The notes below the pieces were generated by a model that saw only the letters and a list, made by a program, of their open reading frames with translations, was not told the DNA's origin and searched no databases. DNA of 64,000 nucleotides from positions 64,001-128,000 of IMG/VR virus record IMGVR_UViG_3300020473_000020. The stretch is one strand, 5' to 3'. The DNA is from a virus. Below are positions 13,304-63,584 of this stretch, piece after piece; position 1 is the first letter of the stretch, and every line of letters begins with the position of its first letter. The position numbers and the translations under genes are program-made.

Positions 13304-15907
13304 TTAGATGCCGCCCGAAATCTTGGCTCTCAGATTTGGTATAAAGTCAGCTGATGAGTATTCACCAATAACTTCTTGGGCTGCCCAGTGTGGACCTGCT
13401 TCGGCTTCTACTAGTAACGGCACGTTAATGAAGTCAAATTCAGACAAGCACATTAGCTCGGCAACAAACTCCACCGTGTCGATAACTTCGTCTTCTGGGC
13501 AGTAGAACGTAATATCATCGTGAATGTTTACCGCAGGTTGAATACCTTCTTTAACCATGCGGTTCATTGCATCTACTACGATGTCTGACGCTGTGCCCTG
13601 TACTGGCGAGTTAACGAGCTGGTTGTAGGAGAGGGGACCATGGCGTTTACGGCCTGTCATTGTTTGTACGTAACCATTGCGCTTATAGAAATCAACCATA
13701 CGCTCTTGGTAACGCTTAACCCCTGCGAACGTGTCCCAGAACTCGTCGTATAGCGGTTGGATTACGTCTGTAGGGATTTGCAGTGTACGCGCACAACTAA
13801 ACATACTTGAACCGAAGAACAGCGGGAATACCCATTGGTTTTTAACGTTACCACGGAACGTTTTTAACGCTTTCGGGTCATTTAGCTTATCTTCGCCGCC
13901 GATAACTTTAGGGTAGGCTTGAGAGATTTTCTTAGCCCATTCCATGTGAACGTCGTAGTTATCCCAAAGTGCCTTACAGAAGTTGACGTCGTGACTGATC
14001 ATACCCCACACACGTGCCTCTATTTGGCCATAATCCACTGACACAATGTGGTGCCCCTTCGGACAGTTAATACCCTCACGTACCTTCTTACCATCACCAC
14101 GCTTAGGGAAGTTTTGTGCATTCGGATCCGAACTAGAAAGACGGCCAGTACCTGTACGATAAAGGTTAAAGCTCGCGTGAAGCTTACCGTCATCATGGAC
14201 TAGCCCCTTTCGCTTACCCTTCTTGTCAGTCTCTTCGTTAGAGTACGTCCACGCGTCAACGTAAGTCGACATGATCTTCGTAAGCTTACGTAGTTTACGA
14301 ATAATACCTGCGCTCTCTAAGCCTGCATTTTCAAGCTTTTCCATCACGGTGTCATCGGTTGATGGCTTACGATTACCGAAGTTATCTTCAACCATAACCT
14401 CTGGGCGTTGCAGCATATCTTTATACAAGGCTAGAAGGTCTGCTGGTGATGAGTGTTGCAGCTTACCCTTACGTCGTCCGTACTTCTTATTGTACTTCTC
14501 GATCTCGTAAACGTTTTCTAGGTCTTCTTCTAACTCCGCAATGTTAGTAACGCATTCTTTACGGAACTCGGCTAGCCACTCGTTGTTAATGTTTAGACCA
14601 ACCTGCTGTGTACGGGCAAGTGTCGCGCAGCTTCGGATCAAGTGGCCATGAACCCATTCGGCGTCTTTGTCACCTTCAATCTTTGGCCACAGCTTTTGCT
14701 TCAACATGTATGTGTATTTGGTGTCCATACCGTTGTACAGTAGGAGCGTGCGCAGGTCGGCTTTTAGAACGTTACGCGTATCGACGTTAGTCAGTTCTTT
14801 TAAGCGGAAGCCTAAGTGTATTTGACACAGTGCATCTAGGTTTAGAACACCTTGGCGCACGTCAAGAACATAACCCATGGCCATCGTGTCATCCCAAGGC
14901 GTATTCAAGATATTATCGCCGTAGAAGTAGCTTAGCCATTCTTGCTCAAACGGTAAGTTATGGGCGATTTTGCTTGTCTTCTTGCGACGGAAGAAACGAC
15001 GCAGTGCCTTCTCAATACGCTCGCGTTGGTTCGTGTTCCAACCCATAGGGTGGTAAACAGGAAAGGCAATGGTGTGCTTATCCGTTCCGATTGCGATAGT
15101 CACGACCTTACTTGCTTTTGAGTACGGACGTAGGCGAGTGGTCTCAATATCCACGCCGACCTCTGGCCATGTGCCCATTTCTTCCAATACCTCTTCGACA
15201 CGGTCAACCTCTGAGTCGGTTTGACCCATGATGATCTCAATATTGTCCTCATAGCCCGAGATAATCGGTTTAGGTGGGTTCTCAGCAAAGTCACCACGCT
15301 GAATGCCACGGCTAAAGCGCTTAATGTCCTGCAAGAATGCACGCTCATACTCGTTTATTTCTTTCTGTCGGTCACGACGTGTACTTGCAACATAATCGAC
15401 TGAGTAAAGCGGGAAGTACCAGAAGCTATGGCCTTTGTAATGGCACAGAACCTGACGCCCGCGCCATGCTTGCACGTCGCCTTCACCTAAAAAGTGCTTT
15501 AGCGGCGCATAGCCTAAACCAAGTACATACGTTGGCTTTTGTTTAAGGAAGTCCTCATCAAAGCGCGAACGACAGGCAATACCTGCATTAGCAGCTTCGT
15601 CGTTATCTGGCGTAGCCCCTTGTACAAGCGCATGGATTGTGATCTTTTTCTTGAGCCAGCCTGACGGGAAGGCGCTCTTGAGTTGTTGCCACTTAGAGCC
15701 TGTTAGGAACTCACCTGAGCGTTCATCAGTTACTGATGGACGGTCAACAATTAAGGCAATGTCGTTGTCTAGCTCGCCCGTGCAGGTCATCTGCTCGCAC
15801 GTGTCTTTCAATGGGCATACATGACAGCCGCCCTTGCCTAGGGTGCGCATAGGTACTTTCTTGTCAATGCGCTTCTTCTTTCTTTGACCAAAAAATGAAC
15901 CAGCCAC
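13304..15907 (-). CDS. polA: Family A DNA polymerase with N-terminal UDG-like domain and 3'-5' exonuclease (SPO1-type architecture)
   Basis: ExoI VDIET, ExoII AHNLPFE, ExoIII YNGMD; TGTGRLSSSDPNAQN; motif A VDYGQIEARV; motif B RGNVKNQWVFPLFFG; motif C NIHDDI; N-terminal CxxCPL and ACR...KP..VLGLG UDG-like segment. Confidence 0.93.
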   Translation of the reverse strand: MAGSFFGQRKKKRIDKKVPMRTLGKGGCHVCPLKDTCEQMTCTGELDNDIALIVDRPSVTDERSGEFLTGSKWQQLKSAFPSGWLKKKITIHALVQGATPDNDEAANAGIACRSRFDEDFLKQKPTYVLGLGYAPLKHFLGEGDVQAWRGRQVLCHYKGHSFWYFPLYSVDYVASTRRDRQKEINEYERAFLQDIKRFSRGIQRGDFAENPPKPIISGYEDNIEIIMGQTDSEVDRVEEVLEEMGTWPEVGVDIETTRLRPYSKASKVVTIAIGTDKHTIAFPVYHPMGWNTNQRERIEKALRRFFRRKKTSKIAHNLPFEQEWLSYFYGDNILNTPWDDTMAMGYVLDVRQGVLNLDALCQIHLGFRLKELTNVDTRNVLKADLRTLLLYNGMDTKYTYMLKQKLWPKIEGDKDAEWVHGHLIRSCATLARTQQVGLNINNEWLAEFRKECVTNIAELEEDLENVYEIEKYNKKYGRRKGKLQHSSPADLLALYKDMLQRPEVMVEDNFGNRKPSTDDTVMEKLENAGLESAGIIRKLRKLTKIMSTYVDAWTYSNEETDKKGKRKGLVHDDGKLHASFNLYRTGTGRLSSSDPNAQNFPKRGDGKKVREGINCPKGHHIVSVDYGQIEARVWGMISHDVNFCKALWDNYDVHMEWAKKISQAYPKVIGGEDKLNDPKALKTFRGNVKNQWVFPLFFGSSMFSCARTLQIPTDVIQPLYDEFWDTFAGVKRYQERMVDFYKRNGYVQTMTGRKRHGPLSYNQLVNSPVQGTASDIVVDAMNRMVKEGIQPAVNIHDDITFYCPEDEVIDTVEFVAELMCLSEFDFINVPLLVEAEAGPHWAAQEVIGEYSSADFIPNLRAKISGGI

Positions 15908-22870: not shown

Positions 22871-25060
22871 ATGATTAATCCTAAAGCGATTGATGGCTTT
22901 ATCCGTGCCGACCGCGATGATTGGCGCTGGATTAAAAAGGCATCACTTGAAGAGCTAGAAGAGACGTTCGCCGACGTTCCTGTACACACCACACCTTATA
23001 AGCATCAATGGGCAAGTATTGCTCTTGGCGTTTCAAACCCAGCGTTCATGTACTTCCTAGACATGGGGCTTGGTAAAGCCTTGGAAGCATCACAGTTAGT
23101 ACTAACGCCGACAGGTTGGAAAGCTATTGGGACGCTAATGGTCGGTGAAACTGTCGTCCACCCATCGGGTGACCATTGTACTATCGAGGGGGTGTTCCCA
23201 CAGGGTAATAAAGACTTATTCGAAGTTGCGTTCGATGACGGTACTAAGAGTATTTGCTGCAAAGAGCACTTATGGTCACTCTGTGATGAGGACGGTACTA
23301 TTACCCAGACTCTTGAACTTCAAGAGTTCATGGGTGACATCAATAACCAAGAGCACCGAATCCCACTCATTTCAAAGACAATCGACCTCAAAGGAAAATC
23401 ACCAGAAATGGGGGCATATCATTCTCGCCGTGAGCTTCTTAATGAAACTACTTGTGATAACGATGCGCTGTACCTCTCAAGGTCATTAGGCCAGTGGAGT
23501 GCATTGGACGAACACGGCAAGCTCATTACTAAAGATACTAAATACAAAACTATCACGAGTGTGACGCCTCACGGCTACGGCCAAGCTGTATGTATCAAGG
23601 TTGACCGTGACGACGGGCTATTCATCACAAATGACTTTATTGTTACGCACAACACTAAGCTACTTCTAGATTTGTTCATGTACCGCCGAAAGCTTGGCCA
23701 AGCGAAGCGTGCGCTGGTATTGGTACCAAACTTCACAAACATCCAATCATGGGTTGATGAAATCCAAGTACACCAGCCCGAACTTGTGGGCATCGGCCTT
23801 GAGGGCAGTGCGAAGCAGCGCAAGGAACTACTTGAAGCCGAAGGTGACGTCTGGATCATCAACTACCAAGGCTTGCAATCACTTGTTACGAAGACTGAAA
23901 ACCGTCGTCGCACTATTGACGAAGAGGCGCTTGAGTACACAGCAAGCTTATTTGACATGGTCGCGATGGATGAGATACACAAATGTAAAAACCCTGAGTC
24001 ACTAACATTTGAAATCTGTGATGTCCTTTGTCAGGCCGCAAAGTTCCGCTATGGCCTGACTGGTACGCCATTCGGCCGTAACCCTATGGACTTGTGGGCG
24101 CAGTTCTTCTTGATTGACCGTGGCGAATCATTGAGCCATCACCCTCAAATCTTTAAAGAAACATTCTTTGACCAGAAGGTTAACGGCGCAGGCTTTATGG
24201 ACTGGGAGTTCAATAAGAAGAAAAAGCGCTTATTGAATCGCATGATCCAGCACCGCAGCATACGCTACCGCGACTCGGAGTGTATGGACTTACCTAGCCA
24301 AAACTTCATTCCTGTGCGTGTTGGCATGGGCAAAGATGCCTTGAAGTATATGCGCGAAATGCTTGACGAGATTCAGCAAAAGGCGATGGCTGGCGATGCG
24401 CTTGACGACCGTAAGAATGCTGAGAACGTCTTTATGAAGATGCGTACGCTAGCCTCGGGGTTTGTGCGTGTTTACGAGCTAGATGACGATGGCAAAAAGA
24501 CGAAAAACTACGAAGACATCATCTTTAAAGACCAGCCTAAGCTCGATGCACTTACCGACCTTATTGAGTCACTGCCAGAAGGTGAGAAAATCGTTATTTT
24601 CCACGAGTTCATCGCGACAGGTAATATGATTGAGGCTGCGCTCAAAAAGTCCAAGATTAAATACCTAGCGCTGAACGCACAAACCAAAGATAAAAAGGCG
24701 TTCTTACATGACTTCCGTGAAAATAAGTCTATTACAGCAGCCGTTGTAAACTCGAAGTCAGGTTCGACTGGTCTAAACCTACAGACAGCGAATCACATGG
24801 CCTTTTTTGAATCACCTGTTTCCCCGATTGAACGTCAGCAAGCAGAAAAGCGTACCCACCGTGGCGGCCAGAAGAAGCCGTGCTTTTACTACGACCTGAT
24901 TACGATCAACTCTGTCGATGAACGTATTCAAGAATTTATCAAAGAGGGTAAAGACTTGATGACTGAAATCGTAGAGCAGAAGTCTAGCATGCTGCTTGGC
25001 ATGATGGGCGAAATGGTAAGCGACGAGAAGTCGCGTACCAGCAAAAAGAAAAAGAAGTAA
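22871..25060 (+). CDS. SNF2-family helicase/ATPase containing an intein
   Basis: DMGLGK[intein]T, ALVLVP, MDEIH, LTGTP, STGLNLQTA, QAEKRTHRGGQ. Confidence 0.9.
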   Translation: MINPKAIDGFIRADRDDWRWIKKASLEELEETFADVPVHTTPYKHQWASIALGVSNPAFMYFLDMGLGKALEASQLVLTPTGWKAIGTLMVGETVVHPSGDHCTIEGVFPQGNKDLFEVAFDDGTKSICCKEHLWSLCDEDGTITQTLELQEFMGDINNQEHRIPLISKTIDLKGKSPEMGAYHSRRELLNETTCDNDALYLSRSLGQWSALDEHGKLITKDTKYKTITSVTPHGYGQAVCIKVDRDDGLFITNDFIVTHNTKLLLDLFMYRRKLGQAKRALVLVPNFTNIQSWVDEIQVHQPELVGIGLEGSAKQRKELLEAEGDVWIINYQGLQSLVTKTENRRRTIDEEALEYTASLFDMVAMDEIHKCKNPESLTFEICDVLCQAAKFRYGLTGTPFGRNPMDLWAQFFLIDRGESLSHHPQIFKETFFDQKVNGAGFMDWEFNKKKKRLLNRMIQHRSIRYRDSECMDLPSQNFIPVRVGMGKDALKYMREMLDEIQQKAMAGDALDDRKNAENVFMKMRTLASGFVRVYELDDDGKKTKNYEDIIFKDQPKLDALTDLIESLPEGEKIVIFHEFIATGNMIEAALKKSKIKYLALNAQTKDKKAFLHDFRENKSITAAVVNSKSGSTGLNLQTANHMAFFESPVSPIERQQAEKRTHRGGQKKPCFYYDLITINSVDERIQEFIKEGKDLMTEIVEQKSSMLLGMMGEMVSDEKSRTSKKKKK
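23078..23653 (+). mobile_element. Class 3 (Ala-start, WCT-motif) mini-intein, 192 aa, in Walker A of the SNF2 helicase
   Basis: Starts ALEASQLVLTPTGWKAIG; block B CCKEHLW; block F AVCIKV; ends IVTHN/T; no LAGLIDADG motifs seen. Confidence 0.88.
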
Positions 25061-26014: not shown

Positions 26015-26141
26015 TCCTGCCAATGGGTACCGTACTAATAGAGGGCAGGTTTACAGCCAGCCCCTTGTACAATGAATTGTTGATACTAGCTTATAGAGTA
26101 AGCTAATGCGCTGATGGCGCTTAAATATAATTGAGACTTTG

Positions 26142-27566
26142 ATGAGCACTAAAAAACTATCTGATAACATGCAGGTAAATATCCTGTCTATGCTGATTTT
26201 CGACCACGAGCATAGCAGTACCATCCATTCACTGGTTGACCCTAACTACCTTGATAACCGCGTTATGCGTGAGATCTGCCGCGAGGCTCAAGCATACATT
26301 AACCGCTATAAGGCACCACCTTGCGAGCACATTGCTGACCTTCTTGAGGATAAGCTTAAAGGCGATAAAGCTTCAATCCGAAAGATGTACGAAGACATCT
26401 TGTATGACCTGTTTGAACAGCGCGATTCTATTAACGGTCAGTTCGTGATCAACCAGCTTCGCGGCTTTATCCGTGGGGCGCACCTAAAGCGTGAGCTAGC
26501 CAGTGCAGTAGAACATCTTCAAAACGGTGACATTGAGCGCGCCGAGCTGAGCGTTAACCAAGCACTTAGACTCCCCGACGCTTCTTTGGATTTGGGTATG
26601 TTCTTCGGTGAAGACATTGAACGTACTTTATCGTTCCTTGAAGAAATGACCGATTGTTTCCCTACGGGCATCCCTGAGTTTGATAAAGCGGGCATTGGTG
26701 CGGTACCAAAAGAACTTCTAATCGTAATGGCACCACCGAATACGGGTAAGACGTGGTGTCTACTTAACTACACCAAGTTTGCACTGCTAGCTCGTAAAAA
26801 AGTACTCCACCTAACCCTTGAAATGCACGAGGGTCGTACGGCTCAACGTTACTTGCAAATGCTTTTCAGTATTTCGAAGCGTAACTCTGATGTACCTATC
26901 GTTGAAATGGAAAAGGACGACGATGGTAACTTACTTGGCATTGCGCCTTCGAATATTGAGCGTCCTGTGCTTGAGGGCAATGATGGCATCCGACATGAGC
27001 TGATCCACAAACTTAAATACCAAAAGCGTCTGCAACTGGTAATCAAGCAGTTCCCTACAGGTCAGCTGACAGTGCCTATGCTAGAGTCATACCTCGACCA
27101 GTTAGAGCGCCACAGCAATTTCGTACCAGACATGATCGTGATTGACTATGCTGACCTTATGAAACTCGACGTATCTAAGATGCGTGAAAGCTTAGGCCAG
27201 TTGTACAAAGATTTACGTGGTATCGCGGTAGACCGTAACCTCGCCATGGTAACAGCAACACAGACAAACCGTGATGGTGCTGATGTCGGGGTAATCACTG
27301 AAAAGCACGTAGCTGAGGACTTCTCGAAGATAGCGATAGCCGATAATATTATCTCACTCAACCAAACAGAAGCTGAGCGAGCACTCGGCCTAATGCGAGC
27401 GTACGTCGTAAAAGCACGTAATGACGAGAAGGGTTGGCAAGTTCTTATGACACAGGCATACCAAGCAGGTCAGTTCGTACTCGACAGTGTCCGAATGAAC
27501 GACAGTTACATTGACCATATCGAGTCCTTGAGCGAAACACAAAAGGCGATGGCCGACGTGGATTAA
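26142..27566 (+). CDS. dnaB: Replicative DNA helicase, DnaB/gp41-like
   Basis: APPNTGKT, LTLEM, IVIDYADLM, TATQTNR, VVKARN. Confidence 0.9.
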   Translation: MSTKKLSDNMQVNILSMLIFDHEHSSTIHSLVDPNYLDNRVMREICREAQAYINRYKAPPCEHIADLLEDKLKGDKASIRKMYEDILYDLFEQRDSINGQFVINQLRGFIRGAHLKRELASAVEHLQNGDIERAELSVNQALRLPDASLDLGMFFGEDIERTLSFLEEMTDCFPTGIPEFDKAGIGAVPKELLIVMAPPNTGKTWCLLNYTKFALLARKKVLHLTLEMHEGRTAQRYLQMLFSISKRNSDVPIVEMEKDDDGNLLGIAPSNIERPVLEGNDGIRHELIHKLKYQKRLQLVIKQFPTGQLTVPMLESYLDQLERHSNFVPDMIVIDYADLMKLDVSKMRESLGQLYKDLRGIAVDRNLAMVTATQTNRDGADVGVITEKHVAEDFSKIAIADNIISLNQTEAERALGLMRAYVVKARNDEKGWQVLMTQAYQAGQFVLDSVRMNDSYIDHIESLSETQKAMADVD

Positions 27567-27588
27567 ACAGGCGACATCTAAAAAACCA

Positions 27589-27617
27589 AAAAGAGCTTTC
27601 ATTAGCTCTTTTTTTTT
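27589..27617 (+). terminator. Rho-independent terminator after DnaB
   Basis: AAAAGAGCT/AGCTCTTTT stem plus a long T-run. Confidence 0.75.
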
Positions 27618-28083
27618 GCCTTGTTTTTAGGTTCTATAGGAAGCGCTGTAAGGTGTCGTAAAGCGCGTAGCGGTACATTGGCATCAAAATAGCGCGAACG
27701 CCGCGCACAGAAGCGCTGAGGTGGCCTAGAGGCGGTTTTAGGCCGCAGTTTTATCTTTAAGTTCAAGAAGTGAGACCGCTACAGCTACAAGTTACCTTTA
27801 TTTATAGGATCCATAGTAGCGACCGTCATCAAGTGATCGTACAACTTCCAACAATACCATGTTCTAGCTCACTCACACGTAACGTAGTGGAGTGGGAGTG
27901 TGGTAGGTTCACTTGTGAACCTACCCCCATCTGGTTGCATAATATGATTACGTTATGGGTTACGTTAGTTATCGTAATGTGTTCTTTCTAGATCTATCTT
28001 TCTAAATATACTTTCTAAATAAACTCTCCACCTTTTGAAATCGACCTACAGCCCTTGCACTGTCTGCGTTCTCCACTTTTTCA

Positions 28084-28177
28084 TTAATATTCGATCACGC
28101 ACTTTTTAATATTCGATCACGCACTTTAGAGGGTTCGTTAATATTCGATCACGCACCCTTAATATTCGATCACGCAC
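28084..28177 (+). repeat. Four 19-bp iterons TTAATATTCGATCACGCAC (putative replication origin)
   Basis: Copies start at 28084, 28106, 28138 and 28159 (spacing 22/32/21 bp); AT-rich tract at about 27980-28030; upstream of the RepA gene. Confidence 0.85.
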
Positions 28178-28486
28178 TTTTTGCCAGAGAAACACCCTCC
28201 AAATTAGCGTTATCTTTTGACCGTTTTGCTACCAAGCTTTGTGGGCTTCATTTCGTGAGATCCACAAGGAGTTGTACAATCCTTGACTAGCAGCCTGTAT
28301 AACTATTGTGCTTTCTGCAAAGACCATCCATTTTTTACTGGAATTTTAGCGCGTTAGTGGCTATTATCGGCCAGCTTTGTGATCGACCTGATCGCTGAGC
28401 ACTTAATGAGACTTGAGATACAAATTGGGCGAAGACCCAATAATGAGTGTTAAAGACCTTGAGGTCTTTTAATGTGAGACTATTAT

Positions 28487-29521
28487 ATGAGCTTAAAAAC
28501 AAACAGCTCGGCTGTTGCACCGCTGGTGGCCTATGCTCCATTTAGTGAGAGTTATAGCACCCCAACTAAGAAACGTAGTGCTAAGCCAAGCGTTGCCCAA
28601 ACAAACATAAACTTCTTGGATAAGCCGTTGTTTATACCATCGCGTTCGCTAGAAGACCCCGTAACAGGAATAAAAACCAAGCTAGACCAATGCCGCTATT
28701 ACAACGACGGTAATGGCTTTGAAATCCAAGCTATGGTTAATACCGAACTTAAAGCGCAAGGCTTTAAAGCATTCTTTGGACTGCCATCGTTCTTTGATAA
28801 AAAAGTGCTGTACATGCTCGCGTCACACCTGCCTGTATTTGATGTCAACCTAGCTGATGCTAAGAGTCTTCTAGATGACGACCATGAAGGTCTTATCCGA
28901 ACAGTTGAGATTACAAACATTCGAGGGTTCCTGCGTAGCATCGGAACTTCGACATGTGGTAAGCAGGTCTTGCACCTGAAAGAGGCGCTGCTACGTTGGA
29001 AAAATCTAATACTAAGCTTTCACAACAATTCATTGACGGTGTCAGCTGGTGAAGACGGTGACGTCGTTCGAACTGTTGTCGAGTCAAAGCGTATTGAGGT
29101 TCTTGACCGCGTCGAGTTCGTTGAAGGTGCCACAGGTAAGATACAATCAATTAAGGTTACCTTTAACCCCAACTTCCTGATCTGCAATAATGATAAGTTT
29201 TCTAGACGTGTGTCGCTGGATGTTTTTTGTAACCTAGCCAGACCCACAGCTGCTCGCCTCTATGAAATTCTTTCAAAGAACTTCTGGGGAACATCTGGCC
29301 GTAAGCTGTGCCGACGCACCCAAGCTCCAAAATGGAGCATAAACCTAGACAACCTTCTTGCTAAGATGGGGTCAAAATCTGATTACAATGCTAAGTCCAC
29401 AATCCGTAAGGCGATAAAAGAGATTAACGAAAAGGACGAGTCTTACTTGTTCCGCGTTGATTTTAGAACAGGTGTTGAAGGCCAAACGGTTGTTGATTTT
29501 GTTCGTCACAAAATGAGATAG
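28487..29521 (+). CDS. repA: Plasmid-type replication initiator protein (RepA/RPA-like winged helix)
   Basis: Resembles replication initiator A motifs: FLDKPLFIPS, GLPSFFDKKVL, GKQVLHLKEALLRW, LARPTAARLYEILSK, WSINLDNLLAKMGS; adjacent iterons. Confidence 0.75.
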   Translation: MSLKTNSSAVAPLVAYAPFSESYSTPTKKRSAKPSVAQTNINFLDKPLFIPSRSLEDPVTGIKTKLDQCRYYNDGNGFEIQAMVNTELKAQGFKAFFGLPSFFDKKVLYMLASHLPVFDVNLADAKSLLDDDHEGLIRTVEITNIRGFLRSIGTSTCGKQVLHLKEALLRWKNLILSFHNNSLTVSAGEDGDVVRTVVESKRIEVLDRVEFVEGATGKIQSIKVTFNPNFLICNNDKFSRRVSLDVFCNLARPTAARLYEILSKNFWGTSGRKLCRRTQAPKWSINLDNLLAKMGSKSDYNAKSTIRKAIKEINEKDESYLFRVDFRTGVEGQTVVDFVRHKMR

Positions 29522-29529
29522 GGCATAGC

Positions 29530-29826
29530 ATGAAAGACTTTTCACCGATCACCATCCCAAATTTTACGGGAATGGGAAGTATTAGTAATGACGGGCAGAA
29601 TGGTGCCCCATACGAATTGATGCTCGTCATCAAGAACCCAATTACTGGGCAGCTTGAAGAGGCTCAGTATTCACTCAGGTTGAGTAAAGTCGACGCCTTT
29701 GTCCGTTGGTCATTGAAGTGGTTTGGCTGGCCGCAGGGTTATGTCGAGCCACAGAAATTCGTTGTACAAGAGTTGTGTGTAACTCAAGACAGCATCGACG
29801 CAGCGAAAGACACGGCTGCTTCTTAA
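29530..29826 (+). CDS. Hypothetical protein
   Basis: Closely follows repA. Confidence 0.6.
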   Translation: MKDFSPITIPNFTGMGSISNDGQNGAPYELMLVIKNPITGQLEEAQYSLRLSKVDAFVRWSLKWFGWPQGYVEPQKFVVQELCVTQDSIDAAKDTAAS

Positions 29827-33547: not shown

Positions 33548-33638
33548 GGTGCCTACTTGTACCAGCCAGAAAATAGATAGGTGACACGCCCGAAACGACG
33601 TGGACGCCGCCCAATTGATACTAAAGAGAATTTTAAAG

Positions 33639-34841
33639 ATGTCTAAAGACCGCAAATTTAAGTATAAGCGCCGTGGTGCTGATAACGTTAAGAAACGTAT
33701 GAACCAATCTGCAACTAATCGTGATGGTTTCATCAACGAAGATGTAGATCTATATAAAGTGAAAGACGGCGATAACTTGCTTCGTATTCTTCCACCTACG
33801 TTTAATAACCTTAACGGTACAGAAGCCGAGCATTATGGCCTTGACGTATTTGTTCACTACGATGTGGGTACTGATGGTAGCTCATTCTTATGCCTTGAGC
33901 AAAACTACAATGAACCTTGCCCAATCTGTCAGGCGCGTATTGAGGCTGAATCAGAAGGTGACAAAGACCTAGCTGATAAGCTTAAAGCTCGTAAACGCGT
34001 ACTAATGTACGTAGTAGACCGTGACGCTGAGGACGCAGGTCCTATGGTGTGGTCAGCACCTTGGACTGTCGACAAAGATCTGTCTATGCGTTCTTTCGAT
34101 AAGCGCTCGGGTGACATCTTCTACCCTGATGACCCAGAAGAAGGTTACGACATCGAATTTGCCCGTACTGGTAAAGGCCGAAACACTAAGTATGAAGGTG
34201 TACAGCTTTCACGCCGTGCCTCACCATTGAGCGAAGACGAAGACCAGATGGACGAGTGGCTAGAAAAGATCGAGGACTCACCTCTAGATCAGCTTCTAAT
34301 TAAGCCAGAAGCCGAGCACATGGAGCGTATTTTTAACGCTGGTATGGGCATGGCTGGTGCTGGTAAAGACGAAGACGAAGATGAAAAGCCATCACGTAGC
34401 CGTCGCTCACGTCGCGATGACGACGAAGATGAAAAGCCATCACGTAGCCGTCGTTCACGTCGCGATGAAGACGAAGACGAAGACGAAAAGCCATCACGTA
34501 GCCGTCGTTCACGTCGTGATGAAGACGAAGACGAAGATGAAAAGCCATCACGTAGCCGTCGTTCACGTCGTGATGAAGACGAAGACGAAGACGAAGACGA
34601 AGGTGGTTCGAATGACTCTTCGGAAGAAAAAGACATCAACGACCTAACCTATGACGAAGTGTTTGGGATGGATCGCGATGAGCTTGAGTCAGTAATTGAT
34701 GAAGGCCAATTAGACATCCCTGATTTCGAAGATTTGGACGATGACGAGCTAGCTGGCGAAGTTTGTGCAGAGCTTGGCCTTAAAAAGCCACGTAAGCGTA
34801 ACAGCGCTGTTCGCGACAAGCTTAACGAAATGCGTGACTAA
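33639..34841 (+). CDS. Single-stranded DNA-binding protein (T4 gp32-like)
   Basis: GDNLLRILPP, FVHY..C...CPIC zinc-site residues, DPEEGYDIEF.RTG..TKY; acidic tail; upstream of RecA. Confidence 0.8.
   Translation: MSKDRKFKYKRRGADNVKKRMNQSATNRDGFINEDVDLYKVKDGDNLLRILPPTFNNLNGTEAEHYGLDVFVHYDVGTDGSSFLCLEQNYNEPCPICQARIEAESEGDKDLADKLKARKRVLMYVVDRDAEDAGPMVWSAPWTVDKDLSMRSFDKRSGDIFYPDDPEEGYDIEFARTGKGRNTKYEGVQLSRRASPLSEDEDQMDEWLEKIEDSPLDQLLIKPEAEHMERIFNAGMGMAGAGKDEDEDEKPSRSRRSRRDDDEDEKPSRSRRSRRDEDEDEDEKPSRSRRSRRDEDEDEDEKPSRSRRSRRDEDEDEDEDEGGSNDSSEEKDINDLTYDEVFGMDRDELESVIDEGQLDIPDFEDLDDDELAGEVCAELGLKKPRKRNSAVRDKLNEMRD
34368..34601 (+). repeat. Four tandem (DE)nKPSRSRRSRRD units in the SSB tail
   Basis: GAAAAGCCATCACGTAGCCGTCG at 34383, 34431, 34485 and 34539. 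Confidence 0.9.
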
Positions 34842-39549: not shown

Positions 39550-40014
39550 ATGACCCGCACCACGCACTTAAACGAAGGTGTCAACGGTTATGCTGCATTA
39601 AAGCTGATGCCCGAGGACGCGAAGGTTGTAACTGAGCGTCTTCAAGCACTGGGCGTCAAAGATGCGATCTCCGCTGACAAGCTACACCTAACGCTTTTAT
39701 ACACTCATGCCGATGTTGAGGAAAAGCCTGCGCTCGCGCCAGAGGCCATCCACCTAGCATTTGCAAAGGGAGAAGCCCGTATTATGGGTAACCCCCCGTA
39801 TAAAGCCCTAGTACTTGAACTAGATGCACATTCAGCCGTACAGCGTAACCACGAGCTTTGTACAATACTTGGCGTGGAGCATAGTCATGCTGAATACATC
39901 CCGCATCTTAGTCTCAAATATGGAGCAACCGCAGGCGATTTAGATAGAGTCGCCGATGCCTTTGATGGCATGGCTTTGCGGTTCTCAGGTGAATACATCG
40001 AAGACACAAATTAA
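39550..40014 (+). CDS. 2H phosphoesterase, Acb1/T4 gp57B-like (putative anti-CBASS)
   Basis: Two HxT/S motifs, KLHLTLLY and YIPHLSLKY; N-terminal GYAALK; 154 aa. Confidence 0.78.
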   Translation: MTRTTHLNEGVNGYAALKLMPEDAKVVTERLQALGVKDAISADKLHLTLLYTHADVEEKPALAPEAIHLAFAKGEARIMGNPPYKALVLELDAHSAVQRNHELCTILGVEHSHAEYIPHLSLKYGATAGDLDRVADAFDGMALRFSGEYIEDTN

Positions 40015-43283: not shown

Positions 43284-43754
43284 TTAAGCTTTTTCGTCAG
43301 CCGCATTAGCCTCGGCATCCTTAACGGCCTGCTCAAGCATTTCATCAAAGTTGACAGGGGCTAATAGCATTTGCGGGAAGCCACCATGAAGTGCCAGCTG
43401 CGAAATCTGATGACGTGCGTAAGGGTAAAGCTGTGAAGGGCAGTGTGACCCAAGTAAGCCCACGAGTTCTTGCTCATTATAGCCTGCAATGTCAAAGATA
43501 CCTGCTTGTTCAACACTAGCAGTGAACAACACCTTTTCTTTATCGTCAATATCTGTAACTTTTGCGAGCACTTCTACGACAACCTCATAGGTCGTATCAC
43601 TGAGCTTATCAGCACGCGTTTTTAAGTCGATCTCAATAGCAGGTTTCCATTCATCTAAGAACACGGCTGGCGTGTTTTCAGTCGTGAAGTTAGTGCTTTT
43701 AAAGTAGATCTTCTGTAGCTCAAACTTATATTCAATTTGTTCATTGTCAGACAT
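43284..43754 (-). CDS. secB: Protein-export chaperone SecB
   Basis: LQKIYFK, WKP, YEVVV, VEQAGIF, CPSQLYPYAR, GGFPQMLLAPVNFD. Confidence 0.93.
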   Translation of the reverse strand: MSDNEQIEYKFELQKIYFKSTNFTTENTPAVFLDEWKPAIEIDLKTRADKLSDTTYEVVVEVLAKVTDIDDKEKVLFTASVEQAGIFDIAGYNEQELVGLLGSHCPSQLYPYARHQISQLALHGGFPQMLLAPVNFDEMLEQAVKDAEANAADEKA

Positions 43755-63243: not shown

Positions 63244-63537
63244 CTAGTCTTTAACGAGCTTAGCGATTAGGTCAGACTCGACAATGATTATGGCCTCTTC
63301 GCCATCTATGGTCTCTTTATGAGGTCTGTATGGCTCGTGAAAGACTACAGTATCGCCTTCCTGCACGCACACAGGGCGAACGTTACCATTATCAAGTAAC
63401 TTGCCAGCGCCGACGGCAAGAACAACACCACGGTTTGATACAGTCTGCATAGCTTGCGGTAGGATTAGATTTGATTTCTGAGGGTCGACAGTTAGTCGCT
63501 TTATTAAAATTTGGTCGTGTAACGGTATGACTTTCAT
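63244..63537 (-). CDS. groES: Co-chaperonin GroES
   Basis: MKVIPLHDQILIK, GVVLAVGAGKLLDNG.VRP..VQEGDTVVF, ESDLIAK. Confidence 0.92.
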   Translation of the reverse strand: MKVIPLHDQILIKRLTVDPQKSNLILPQAMQTVSNRGVVLAVGAGKLLDNGNVRPVCVQEGDTVVFHEPYRPHKETIDGEEAIIIVESDLIAKLVKD

Positions 63538-63584
63538 GCGCGTTGTCTCAATTAGGTATTTAACGCGCATTGTACAATGGTTTT

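Follow-up and report, generated by a model that had tools for sequence, protein, structure and literature searches.

A candidate Rep-iteron replication origin among the replisome genes of very large marine phages

We identified, among the replication genes of a very large marine phage, a Rep protein, four iterons and an AT-rich repeat element that together probably form a working theta-type origin with its own initiator, part of the core replication module in a lineage of very large marine phages whose capsids are T4-like. As a Rep-iteron system the locus is of a familiar type; what is unusual is its setting, the replication genes of a giant phage. It lies in a 64,000-nt stretch (the window, to which all coordinates refer) of a 138,059-bp viral record, and our account of the repeats and their uniqueness, the family and fold of Rep, the conserved architecture and the gene context draws on sequence and computation. 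The locus comprises the following features:

26139..27566, + strand, DnaB-like replicative helicase gene (DnaB_C, PHROG 19), directly upstream of the origin
27588..27613, no strand assigned, terminator-like hairpin with a 10-bp stem and T-runs on both strands, which closes the helicase operon and reads as a terminator either way
27870..27925, + strand, twin hairpins or palindromes upstream of the AT-rich element, from DNA folding; the second is a perfect 11-bp palindrome (27902-27925)
27940..28025, + strand, AT-rich candidate DNA-unwinding element with three 13/14-bp direct repeats CTTTCTA(A/G)AT, from AT content, repeat uniqueness and conservation
28084..28177, + strand, iterons, four identical 19-mers TTAATATTCGATCACGCAC found as exact matches, the presumed Rep binding sites
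28178..28486, + strand, putative rep promoter and leader region, from sequence
28487..29521, + strand, rep, encoding a 344-aa initiator of the RPA/Rep_3 two-winged-helix class, from Pfam RPA and the predicted fold

The sequence-only reading of this DNA had described four identical GATC-bearing 19-mers spaced 22/32/21 bp and phased at about 2, 3 and 2 helical turns, and both points were borne out. Exact search returned four copies of TTAATATTCGATCACGCAC on the + strand with no mismatch, at 28084-28102, 28106-28124, 28138-28156 and 28159-28177, 310-400 bp upstream of the rep start codon, and GATC is present in each of the four in this record. No fifth copy was found in the 64-kb window at up to three mismatches, and across the whole record (up to two mismatches) the only four copies were those at the origin. 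None of 100 shuffled sequences attained four copies (mean 0.02). The start-to-start distances of 22, 32 and 21 bp correspond to 2.1, 3.05 and 2.0 helical turns; when triplets of spacings between 19 and 45 bp are drawn at random, 2.6% have all three distances within 1 bp of a multiple of 10.5. About 60 bp upstream of the iterons lies the AT-rich element, and the AT-richest intergenic part spans 27940-28020 (70-78% AT in 40-bp windows). Its CTTTCTA(A/G)AT repeats, which had also been noticed ahead of the iterons from the letters alone, were confirmed at 27984, 27998 and 28011. This 10-mer occurs three times in the 138 kb, counting both strands, against 0.73 expected, and all three copies are at this spot.

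The protein encoded by ORF 28487-29521 had been taken for a replication initiator, an assignment that the Pfam check upheld: RPA (PF10134) matched residues 87-310 with an E-value of 1.2e-10 and 41.8 bits, passing its cut-off of 27. Rep3_C WH2 scored 17.1 bits, under its cut-off of 21.1, and neither NCBIfam nor PHROG gave a match. The AF2 model had a pTM of 0.71 and a mean pLDDT of 68, with residues 100-344 mostly at 75-93. A Foldseek search with this model yielded 49 matches at E<=1e-3, and among the matches listed all were RctB, RepE, Rep or pi. By VIA-align the model superposed on pi (2nra_C) with a Z of 14.5 and an rmsd of 3.1 over 212 residues, on RepE54 (1rep_C) with a Z of ~14 and on RctB with 11.3, the next unrelated proteins reaching at most 6.9; sequence identity to the pi/RepE matches was only 13-15% over about 200-212 residues. 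The N-terminal extension of ~100 residues is poorly modelled and conserved, with the motif NINFLDxPxFxPS in a 21-sequence alignment; that Rep carries a clamp-binding motif is only a guess. A PDB sequence search with the Rep profile gave nothing relevant, tblastn of Rep against 50,697 phage records and 72,556 plasmids was negative, and megablast of the locus against phages and plasmids found no match either.

The architecture of the origin was compared in two close relatives with origin DNA, L005 (Rep 83% identical) and L006 (Rep 48%). Both carry four iterons at exactly 22/32/21 with diverged iteron sequence, the core common to them and the window being TTC-R-A-W-CACGCA, and both have three CTTTCT/CTCTCT (CTYTCT) repeats at the same place upstream of the iterons. 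The Pfam RPA match, the predicted two-winged-helix fold and the iteron number and spacing kept in two of two close relatives indicate that plasmid-like Rep-iteron initiation is well supported on sequence and modelling grounds. One relative forms a 202,601-bp contig (C26) in the isolate assembly of Pseudoalteromonas umbrosa B95; its Rep is 82.8% identical, which ranks 48 of 59 among the shared proteins (median 71%), and by such identities Rep is a well-kept core gene.

We also examined three distant viral loci (L034, L035 and L036). L035, a distant 104-kb viral contig, shows the order Rep, three 23-bp iterons (spacing 22 and 23) and three CTTTAAAGT AT-rich repeats, followed by a 5'-3' exonuclease, a DnaB-like helicase and an SNF2 helicase, which is the gene set of the window. 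The L035 DnaB-like helicase, beside the distant Rep, is 38% identical to that of the window. In L034, repeats and an AT-rich tract follow rep; clear iterons were not seen in L036. Scans of viral contigs with Rep and two further proteins of the record found no relative, and the spaced CACGCA pattern had no match in viral contigs. The recurrence of the same Rep/iteron/exonuclease/DnaB-like/SNF2 module in the distant 104-kb contig argues that Rep is a native phage initiator and not a plasmid add-on. From these sequence comparisons we conclude that the origin was inherited as a core component of the phage's replication module and did not arrive by recent insertion of a plasmid.

Other elements around the origin are conserved to differing degrees. 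The twin hairpins fold as DNA with a z of -3.4 here and -7.05 in L005, pairing being preserved by changes on both arms, and the corresponding hairpin in L006 is not significant (z -0.77). The rep leader holds an inverted 8-bp iteron fragment, GTGATCGA, at 28379-28386, which by its sequence is a possible operator, and two small hairpins (28424-28441 and 28452-28469) that are kept in L005 with altered stem bases; at the matching place in the L005 leader an iteron-like TTTGAACACGCA faces an inverted TGCGTGATC. Four 19-mers bearing GATC make up a separate array in L006. A promoter scan of the intergenic region was not above chance (1 found vs 2.4 expected), the IHF consensus was not found in the origin region, and an Rfam scan of 27300-28700 returned a sub-threshold ctRNA_p42d match only, on the terminator hairpin (19.3 bits vs a gathering score of 50). 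DnaA boxes, sought by consensus (TTATCCACA with at most one mismatch; TT[AT]TNCACA), were found in none of the three intergenic regions, those of the window, L005 and L006. The P1/F/RK2-type layout proposed for this locus stands for the iterons, the AT-rich repeat element and Rep, and does not extend to DnaA boxes in these three origins. We judged GC skew uninformative as evidence on the origin: the cumulative minimum of the record, at ~86 kb (window ~22,000) and 6 kb from the origin, coincides with a switch in gene orientation, and the C26 extreme lies ~33 kb from the origin.

The gene context agreed with the earlier view that the origin sits within a phage replisome cluster. The rep gene is a member of the replisome operon and shares its strand with the neighbouring genes, which encode an SNF2 helicase, a 5'-3' exonuclease, the DnaB-like helicase, thioredoxin, a clamp loader, a gp32-like SSB and UvsX/RecA; PolA and a beta-clamp-like protein are encoded further upstream. 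The product of 26139..27566 matched Pfam DnaB_C at 53.4 bits and PHROG 19, DnaB-like replicative helicase, at 1.5e-66, and is 89.5% identical to the B95 relative's copy; it is presumed to be the helicase that Rep recruits. The Edwardsiella phage with the closest helicase has no Rep beside it in its annotation, and the relatives do not conserve the ORF that follows rep (29530-29826). The 138-kb record, which is 33% complete by CheckV, also carries virion genes for a Gp23-like capsid protein, a prohead protease, terminase, a tail-fibre-like protein and endolysin domains, and baseplate gp25, PAAR, primase, ligase and RNR likewise count among the virion and replisome genes present. A 419,624-bp contig is on record with the same Rep sequence and a 400,011-bp contig with its 48% relative, so that recorded contig sizes are 400-420 kb. 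Among the sequencing runs, 20 of the 24 listed rows, from 12 studies, hold the stretch. In one RNA run, a marine metatranscriptome (X16), contigs of the neighbouring replication genes are present, which is compatible with ordinary lytic infection. No contig covers bins 27594-28501, and the rep bins have lower depth than their neighbours; because these are contigs, they give no measure of transcription level and the gap is no evidence for a silent origin.

We infer Rep binding, melting, helicase recruitment and any plasmid state along the following lines. Rep monomers would bind the four helically phased 19-bp iterons, and the resulting nucleoprotein complex would melt the AT-rich element ~60 bp upstream, one strand of which Rep may hold, by analogy with TrfA and RepE. 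As no DnaA boxes were found, recruitment of the DnaB-like helicase that the phage encodes just upstream probably falls to Rep itself. Synthesis would then pass to the phage primase, PolA with thioredoxin, the beta-clamp-like protein and the clamp loader, and at a later stage UvsX and gp32 could drive recombination-dependent replication. Together with a parA/ParB-like/RHH-like operon ~40 kb away, the origin would permit low-copy plasmid-like persistence.

Several characterised origins resemble this proposed one in part. Mini-F RepE/ori2 and R6K pi/gamma-ori share with it the two-winged-helix initiator, direct 19-22-bp iterons at ~2-turn spacing, and an adjacent AT-rich element and initiator gene; unlike them, the phage system has a Rep of low identity with an extra conserved N-terminal region, DnaA boxes were not found in it, and its origin is that of a giant phage and adjoins helicase and replisome genes which the phage itself encodes. 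RK2 TrfA/oriV also combines iterons with an unwinding element of short repeats, but it has DnaA boxes and uses host DnaB/DnaC, whereas no DnaA boxes were found here. According to PMC4980987, the RK2 element consists of four 13-mers, all needed, and TrfA binds one strand of it; the phage element has three 13/14-mers. P1 RepA/oriR with parAB is alike in being a phage system with an iteron initiator and ParA-type partition and without an integrase. GATC methylation matters at P1 oriR, and P1 has a separate lytic replicon. Both P1 and F possess a second copy-control iteron array, whereas here four iterons were found and a search of the 138 kb with the core TTC[GA]A[TA]CACGCA (up to one mismatch) returned the four origin sites and one unrelated site, with no second (incA/incC-type) array. 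In P1, moreover, rep and par are adjacent, whereas here rep is in the replisome cluster and par ~40 kb away, and DnaA boxes flank the P1 origin as described in PMC4980987. Among phage initiators, those of lambda (O/ori-lambda) and SPP1 (oriL) likewise act at repeated sites by an AT-rich region to start theta replication. In lambda the iterons lie inside the O gene and host DnaB is used. The Rhodobacter phages RcCronus, RcRhea and RcSaxon are alike in an annotated RPA-type RepA, 26% identical to the L035 Rep, and unlike in being small (36-kb).

The sequence-only reading had further proposed that the phage may persist as an episomal jumbo phage-plasmid and had called for a search for parAB and a repressor. 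The parA product matched Pfam AAA_31 (68.7 bits), CbiA (59.1 bits) and PHROG 164 (7.4e-24), with no match to ParA by tblastn against phages. Its partner is ParB-like by Atlas features (0.94) and a weak structure match (TM 0.54 by target) only, and has only three homologues. The genes run parA, ParB-like, RHH-like and are syntenic in the B95 relative. Tyrosine integrase (PF00589), ParB_N (PF02195) and S24 repressor (PF00717) had no match on the 138 kb or C26, so that of the partition and repressor genes sought, parA and a weakly assigned ParB-like partner were found and an S24 repressor was not. Bacterial housekeeping families were absent from the 74 ORFs in the outer parts of C26 (1-46,327; 165,941-202,526), which also carries a Phd/ParE pair. 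A 121-bp end overlap of C26 was rejected as proof of circularity, because it belongs to a repeat that also occurs internally, at 201,523; both available genomes, the record and the B95 contig, are partial. Phage structural and lysis genes share one 138-kb record with Rep and ParA. The par operon, the integrase and repressor not found, and the flank-free 202-kb isolate contig with its Phd/ParE pair give circumstantial support to a jumbo phage-plasmid state, which is plausible but unproven. Persistent infection is known to bring large virulent phages into isolate assemblies, as described in 10.1101/2024.12.31.630880. Phage-plasmids are typically roughly 50-100 kb by the account in PMC7969092, several times smaller than this lineage. 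The circular jumbo prophage pBtic235 of Bacillus thuringiensis, a phage >200 kb described as kept as an extrachromosomal element (PMC9700832), is a precedent from a different host phylum. The fullest form of the proposal is a tentative possibility: the 400-420-kb phages with T4-like capsids and a complete replisome would be low-copy Pseudoalteromonas plasmid prophages in which one DnaA-independent Rep-iteron origin serves both plasmid and lytic replication, Rep loads the phage's DnaB-like helicase through NINFLDxPxFxPS, and the phage's own Dam gates initiation in this member by methylating the GATC of every iteron.

That last element, Dam-gated initiation, is doubtful as an addition to the Rep-iteron origin. 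On this view, full methylation of the iterons would be a precondition for Rep binding, the rule that RctB follows at Vibrio cholerae oriCII; alternatively, the origin in its hemimethylated form would be sequestered by SeqA. GATC is under-represented overall in the 138 kb (287 observed vs 456-533 expected), and its densest 600-bp window is the origin, with 10 sites (next best 6, mean 1.25), including those within all four iterons; the record also encodes a Dam-family methyltransferase (PF05869 120 bits; TIGR01712 104.9 bits, cut-off 97). RctB domains 2-3 are among the Rep fold matches as plasmid-Rep-like winged-helix domains (5tbf_B: Foldseek E 1.6e-7), and GATC is in every initiator site in oriCII, where, according to PMC2865523, full methylation of the GATC-containing 11- and 12-mers is required for RctB to bind them. 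RctB is, however, a chromosomal initiator of four domains that works with 11-/12-mers, 39-mers and a DnaA box, and the Rep fold is nearer to pi/RepE. Also against gating, iteron GATC is not conserved in this phage lineage, being kept in 2/4 iterons in L005 and 0/4 in L006, GATC is not enriched at the B95 relative's origin, where 870 bp hold 6 sites against 8 in the top windows of other regions, and a search of the B95 genome with this Dam as query found no orthologue. The GATC behind the earlier suggestion of Dam sensitivity is thus present in all four iterons here and incomplete or lacking in the relatives, and the sequence case for Dam control of the origin is weak.

It is rather unlikely that the locus serves solely as a plasmid-prophage replicon of the P1 oriR/repA type, with lytic replication initiated at other places, such as the R-loops or recombination intermediates used by T4. 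By their Pfam names, most RPA/Rep_3-class proteins are initiators of plasmids, and the conserved par operon, the integrase not found and a relative lying in an isolate assembly without bacterial flanks and with a toxin-antitoxin pair all fit such a replicon; UvsX, gp32 and several helicases would be at hand for T4-style recombination-dependent replication. It is opposed by the position of rep within the replisome operon and far from par, by the same module on the distant 104-kb viral contig, and by a copy-control array and repressor not having been found in the searches above.

A Pseudoalteromonas megaplasmid or chromid-like replicon with phage-derived genes, the Rep-iteron site being simply its plasmid origin, is very improbable. 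Such an element could account for Rep and ParA together with many cell-like accessory genes (glutathionylspermidine synthase, PspA, a sodium:dicarboxylate symporter, SecB and an ion channel), for the recorded contig sizes and for the presence in an isolate assembly, but it conflicts with the full virion and replisome gene set, with a capsid protein that shares 57.6% identity with the capsid proteins of Rhizobium jumbo phage isolates, and with the finding of the sequence in seawater metagenomes of several studies. Least probable of all, the repeats would be operator sites only, through which a Rep-like winged-helix protein regulates transcription in a region that is no origin: the iterons do sit upstream of rep, and Rep-class autorepression at inverted iteron halves is represented among the fold matches by the dimeric RepE-operator structure 2z9o, but four direct, phased repeats 310-400 bp from the start codon, next to an AT-rich element whose repeats are conserved, and in a layout kept at fixed spacing in relatives, speak against it, and a promoter-operator role does not fit the L035 iterons, which lie downstream of rep.

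The reading that we prefer, a Rep-iteron origin in the core replication module, bears on a group of viruses, the very large phages, for which replication origins and initiators are mostly unknown; the locus offers an explicit candidate origin-initiator pair. T4, by comparison, starts from R-loops without an initiator, as described in PMC3016281. The architecture conserved in relatives and the related module in a distant 104-kb phage together suggest an unrecognised family of phage replication modules consisting of Rep, iterons and a DnaB-like helicase. The origin fragment could also serve as a replicon for Pseudoalteromonas genetic tools. If plasmid persistence is true, it would extend phage-plasmids far beyond their usual size and would provide a mechanism by which jumbo phages persist in cultures.

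The 920-bp intergenic region between the DnaB-like helicase gene and rep, together with rep itself, contains the following elements:

27870-27925: two adjacent hairpins (z -3.4) 5' of the AT-rich element, the second being an 11-bp perfect palindrome
27984, 27998 and 28011 (starts): three CTTTCTA(A/G)AT repeats
28084, 28106, 28138 and 28159, + strand: four copies of the iteron TTAATATTCGATCACGCAC, 0 mismatches
28487-29521, + strand: rep, encoding a 344-aa protein

The four identical GATC-containing 19-mers and the upstream AT-rich repeats described in the sequence-only reading were thus borne out, with GATC inside all four iterons. No fifth copy was found in the window at ≤3 mismatches, nor any extra copy at ≤2 mismatches across the 138,059-bp record; the four-copy count was reached by none of 100 shuffles, and a search of the 138 kb with the core TTC-R-A-W-CACGCA revealed no second array. 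The described spacing of 22/32/21 bp (about 2, 3 and 2 helical turns) also held, this phasing taken alone being modestly unusual (matched by 2.6% of random triplets). The CTTTCTA(A/G)AT repeats sit in the AT-richest part of the region (70-78% AT), and the 10-mer has no other copy in the record (0.73 expected). The hairpin pair might act as a binding site for a protein or as a signal for single-strand initiation.

The winged-helix initiator expected of the ORF was recovered: it matched Pfam RPA, "replication initiator protein A", at 41.8 bits (cut-off 27), with Rep3_C below threshold. Rep had no PHROG or NCBIfam match, nor any tblastn match in sets of 50,697 phage records and 72,556 plasmids. 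An AlphaFold model built from an 11-sequence alignment (pTM 0.71) was confident over residues about 100-344 and poor over residues 1-99. The Foldseek count at E≤1e-3 was 49 PDB matches, and those listed were all iteron initiators (RctB domains 2-3, RepE, the Rep-DUE complex and pi). With VIA-align, the model matched iteron-bound pi at Z 14.5 (rmsd 3.1 Å, 212 residues), RepE54 at Z about 14 and RctB at Z 11.3; the next unrelated winged-helix proteins reached Z ≤6.9. Given the RPA match and the fold matches to pi, RepE and RctB, Rep is by sequence and predicted fold a two-winged-helix initiator of the plasmid iteron class (RPA/Rep_3). Its branch is rare: a word search of 5.8 billion proteins returned just 10, and 25 of 1.84 billion representatives matched at E≤1e-3 (one reaching 1e-30), 14 of them carrying RPA and/or Rep3_N at E≤1e-3. 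The motif NINFLDxPxFxPS, common to all 21 sequences of a wider alignment, falls in Rep within the poorly modelled N-terminal extension.

Two close relatives were compared at the DNA level. The locus of Pseudoalteromonas umbrosa B95 (L005) encodes a Rep 83% identical to that of the window and has the same gene order (SNF2, exonuclease, DnaB-like helicase, intergenic region, rep). Its four iterons, with core ATTC(G/A)ATCACGCA, are spaced exactly 22/32/21 bp, and it retains the CTTTCT repeats upstream of them as well as both hairpins (z -7.05), in which changes on both arms keep pairing. The second relative (L006), a 3.5-kb metagenome contig with a 48%-identical Rep, carries four iterons of differing sequence, GCACTTTCAAACACGCAG, again at 22/32/21 bp, preceded by three CTCTCTA repeats. 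The core TTC-R-A-W-CACGCA is common to all three loci. Fixed iteron number and spacing with drifting sequence has, on these alignments, the look of a protein-DNA machine under selection. At 132-204, some 270 bp upstream of the iterons, L006 bears another tandem array, in which a 19-bp unit containing GATC (TTTGAGATCGAAGTGTACG) occurs four times; nothing comparable is present in the window. At 82.8% identity between our record and its B95 counterpart, Rep exceeds the 71% median of the 59 proteins shared, which argues that it is a conserved core gene rather than a fast-moving insert. About 100 bp 5' of the rep start codon lies an inverted 8-bp iteron fragment, matched in L005 by a clearer inverted pair; it is a possible operator for autoregulation.

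Three distant Rep relatives emerged when viral contigs were searched with a profile. One, on a 104-kb contig (L035), encodes a 252-aa Rep (38.7 bits on RPA) followed 3' by three 23-bp iterons (spacing 22 and 23 bp), a hairpin, three AT-rich CTTTAAAGT repeats, a small ORF, and then 5'-3' exonuclease, DnaB-like helicase and SNF2 helicase genes, the gene set around the window's origin in a different order. The second (L034) has repeats and a very AT-rich tract 3' of rep; the search for repeats found nothing clear at the third (L036). Annotated RepA proteins of three small Rhodobacter phages share 26% identity with the L035 Rep, so RPA-type initiators have precedent in phages. Judged by gene content, the Rep-iteron module beside exonuclease, DnaB-like and SNF2 genes appears to be an older phage module.

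The record is an IMG/VR fragment with a CheckV completeness of 33%. Records of the identical Rep span 6 contigs, as do those of the identical ParB-like protein, with a maximum length of 419,624 bp; the 48%-identical Rep is recorded on a 400,011-bp contig. The 138 kb encode a Gp23-like capsid protein (57.6% identity to its counterparts in Rhizobium jumbo phages of roughly 207 kb), prohead protease, terminase, endolysin, primase, NAD ligase, PolA with thioredoxin, a beta-clamp-like protein, clamp loader and ribonucleotide reductase, and are also rich in cell-like accessory genes. Further features, some of them located on pieces of the record (L007, L008, L009, L011), were:

L007:10918-11511, - strand: Dam-family N6-adenine methyltransferase (PF05869 120 bits; TIGR01712 104.9 bits)
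L007/L008, record about 18-22 kb: glutathionylspermidine synthase with neighbours DUF1190/DUF350/DUF2491/PspA/DUF2170, accessory genes unusual for a phage
L009:13810-15102: sodium:dicarboxylate symporter gene lying between those for capsid and terminase, also an accessory gene unusual for a phage
Window 39550-40014, 43284-43754 and 63244-63570: group of accessory genes unusual for a phage (Acb1 anti-CBASS, SecB, Cpn10)
L011:5554-9329 (record 132554-136329, outside the window): par operon, ParA, then ParB-like, then RHH-like

Several stretches varied. In the SNF2 helicase gene (22871-25060), one contig of run X15 lacks a 576-bp segment (23078-23653), and run X5 has 1201 other letters in its place; over residues 58-159 the protein hits PHROGs of several unrelated kinds (terminase, DnaC-like, primase), and the segment looks like an intein or other mobile insertion, variable between strains. 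Within the coding sequence of the gp32-like SSB gene (33600-34841), a 54-bp unit with embedded GAAGAC hexamers is tandemly repeated (4.4 copies, 34366-34595); one run shows 6 bp inserted here, and in another there are numerous short contigs and a spike in depth. Short stretches at about 14360-14880 of the record (L007) share 76-87% identity with many tandem 80-bp units of the B95 chromosome; they are probably a cluster of phage tRNAs similar to the host's tRNA arrays.

Dam-sensitive initiation, also proposed earlier, agreed with the GATC in every iteron, the phage Dam gene and the local GATC density: the record is GATC-poor (287 observed vs 456-533 expected), and the origin is its densest 600-bp window (10 sites, next best 6). 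The nearest parallel is oriCII of Vibrio cholerae, where the RctB 11-/12-mers are reported all to hold GATC and to bind solely when fully methylated (PMC2865523). However, GATC is kept in 2/4 iterons of L005 and 0/4 of L006, the B95 origin is not GATC-rich, and no orthologue was found in the B95 genome with the phage Dam as query; Dam gating is thus at most a feature of this member.

The suggestion of an episomal jumbo phage-plasmid has circumstantial support. The ParA (392 aa) is followed by a 665-aa protein with an ESM Atlas ParB feature score of 0.94, its best ten named matches all being ParB-type; its structure match was weak and Pfam ParB_N gave none, making the assignment a lead only. 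The third protein (196 aa) has a weak RHH-type match (YlcI/YnfO N-terminus, HicB). The operon is syntenic in the B95 contig, C26 (identity 72%, 45% and 68%, in gene order). A ParA with a candidate partner was thus found elsewhere in the genome. Also on the supporting side, no S24 repressor, canonical ParB_N or tyrosine integrase was found on the 138 kb or C26, bacterial housekeeping families were absent from 74 ORFs in the outer parts of the 202,601-bp C26 (1-46,327; 165,941-202,526), and C26 carries a Phd/ParE pair. Phage-plasmids are described as typically about 50 and 100 kb (PMC7969092), and pBtic235, reported as a jumbo circular prophage (PMC9700832), is a precedent. On the other side, both genomes are partial, rep is not adjacent to par, and large virulent phages reportedly turn up in isolate assemblies via persistent infection (10.1101/2024.12.31.630880). 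Near-identical sequence occurred in 20 of 24 listed runs from 12 studies, mostly seawater metagenomes; two were metatranscriptomes with contigs covering neighbouring replication genes, an occurrence compatible with ordinary infection. The jumbo phage-plasmid reading is worth testing. The 121-bp end overlap of C26 was rejected as a sign of circularity: the contig starts and ends in copies of one repeat (1-229; 202481-202601) that recurs internally about 1 kb before its end (201523-201751; paralogous 208-aa ORFs), which explains the assembly break and mimics circular overlap. The Phd/YefM antitoxin and ParE toxin pair of C26 (166787-167473; L024:6787-7473) immediately precedes genes for PAAR and baseplate gp25 in this related phage. 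Our record ends some 1.7 kb beyond the par operon, within an array of tandem 15-bp units (ACTGACCATTGACCT; L011:10974-11059, 5.7 copies, 97% matches), which may serve as a centromere-like site or may simply have broken the assembly; none of this type was seen beside the B95 par operon.

If Rep acts like RepE, pi and TrfA, its monomers would bind all four iterons and melt the AT-rich element beside them. The unwinding element of RK2 is reported to comprise four 13-mers, each needed, with one strand bound by Rep (PMC4980987); three unique 13/14-mers in the window fit this role. The origins of P1, F and RK2 have DnaA box/IHF features, whereas neither a DnaA box nor an IHF consensus site was found in the intergenic regions of the window, L005 or L006. 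As no DnaA box is present and the DnaB-like helicase gene ends close by, 520 bp upstream of the iterons, direct loading of this helicase by Rep, a proposed contact, would be the simplest model. The plasmid-type RepA and iteron origin proposed within a phage replisome therefore stood in its Rep class, iterons and AT-rich element, but its likeness to the textbook P1, F and RK2 origins failed on DnaA boxes. We regard the locus, on its sequence, as a real, well-defined Rep-iteron origin embedded in the phage's own replisome operon, of an already known class (RPA/Rep_3) in an unusual and useful setting.
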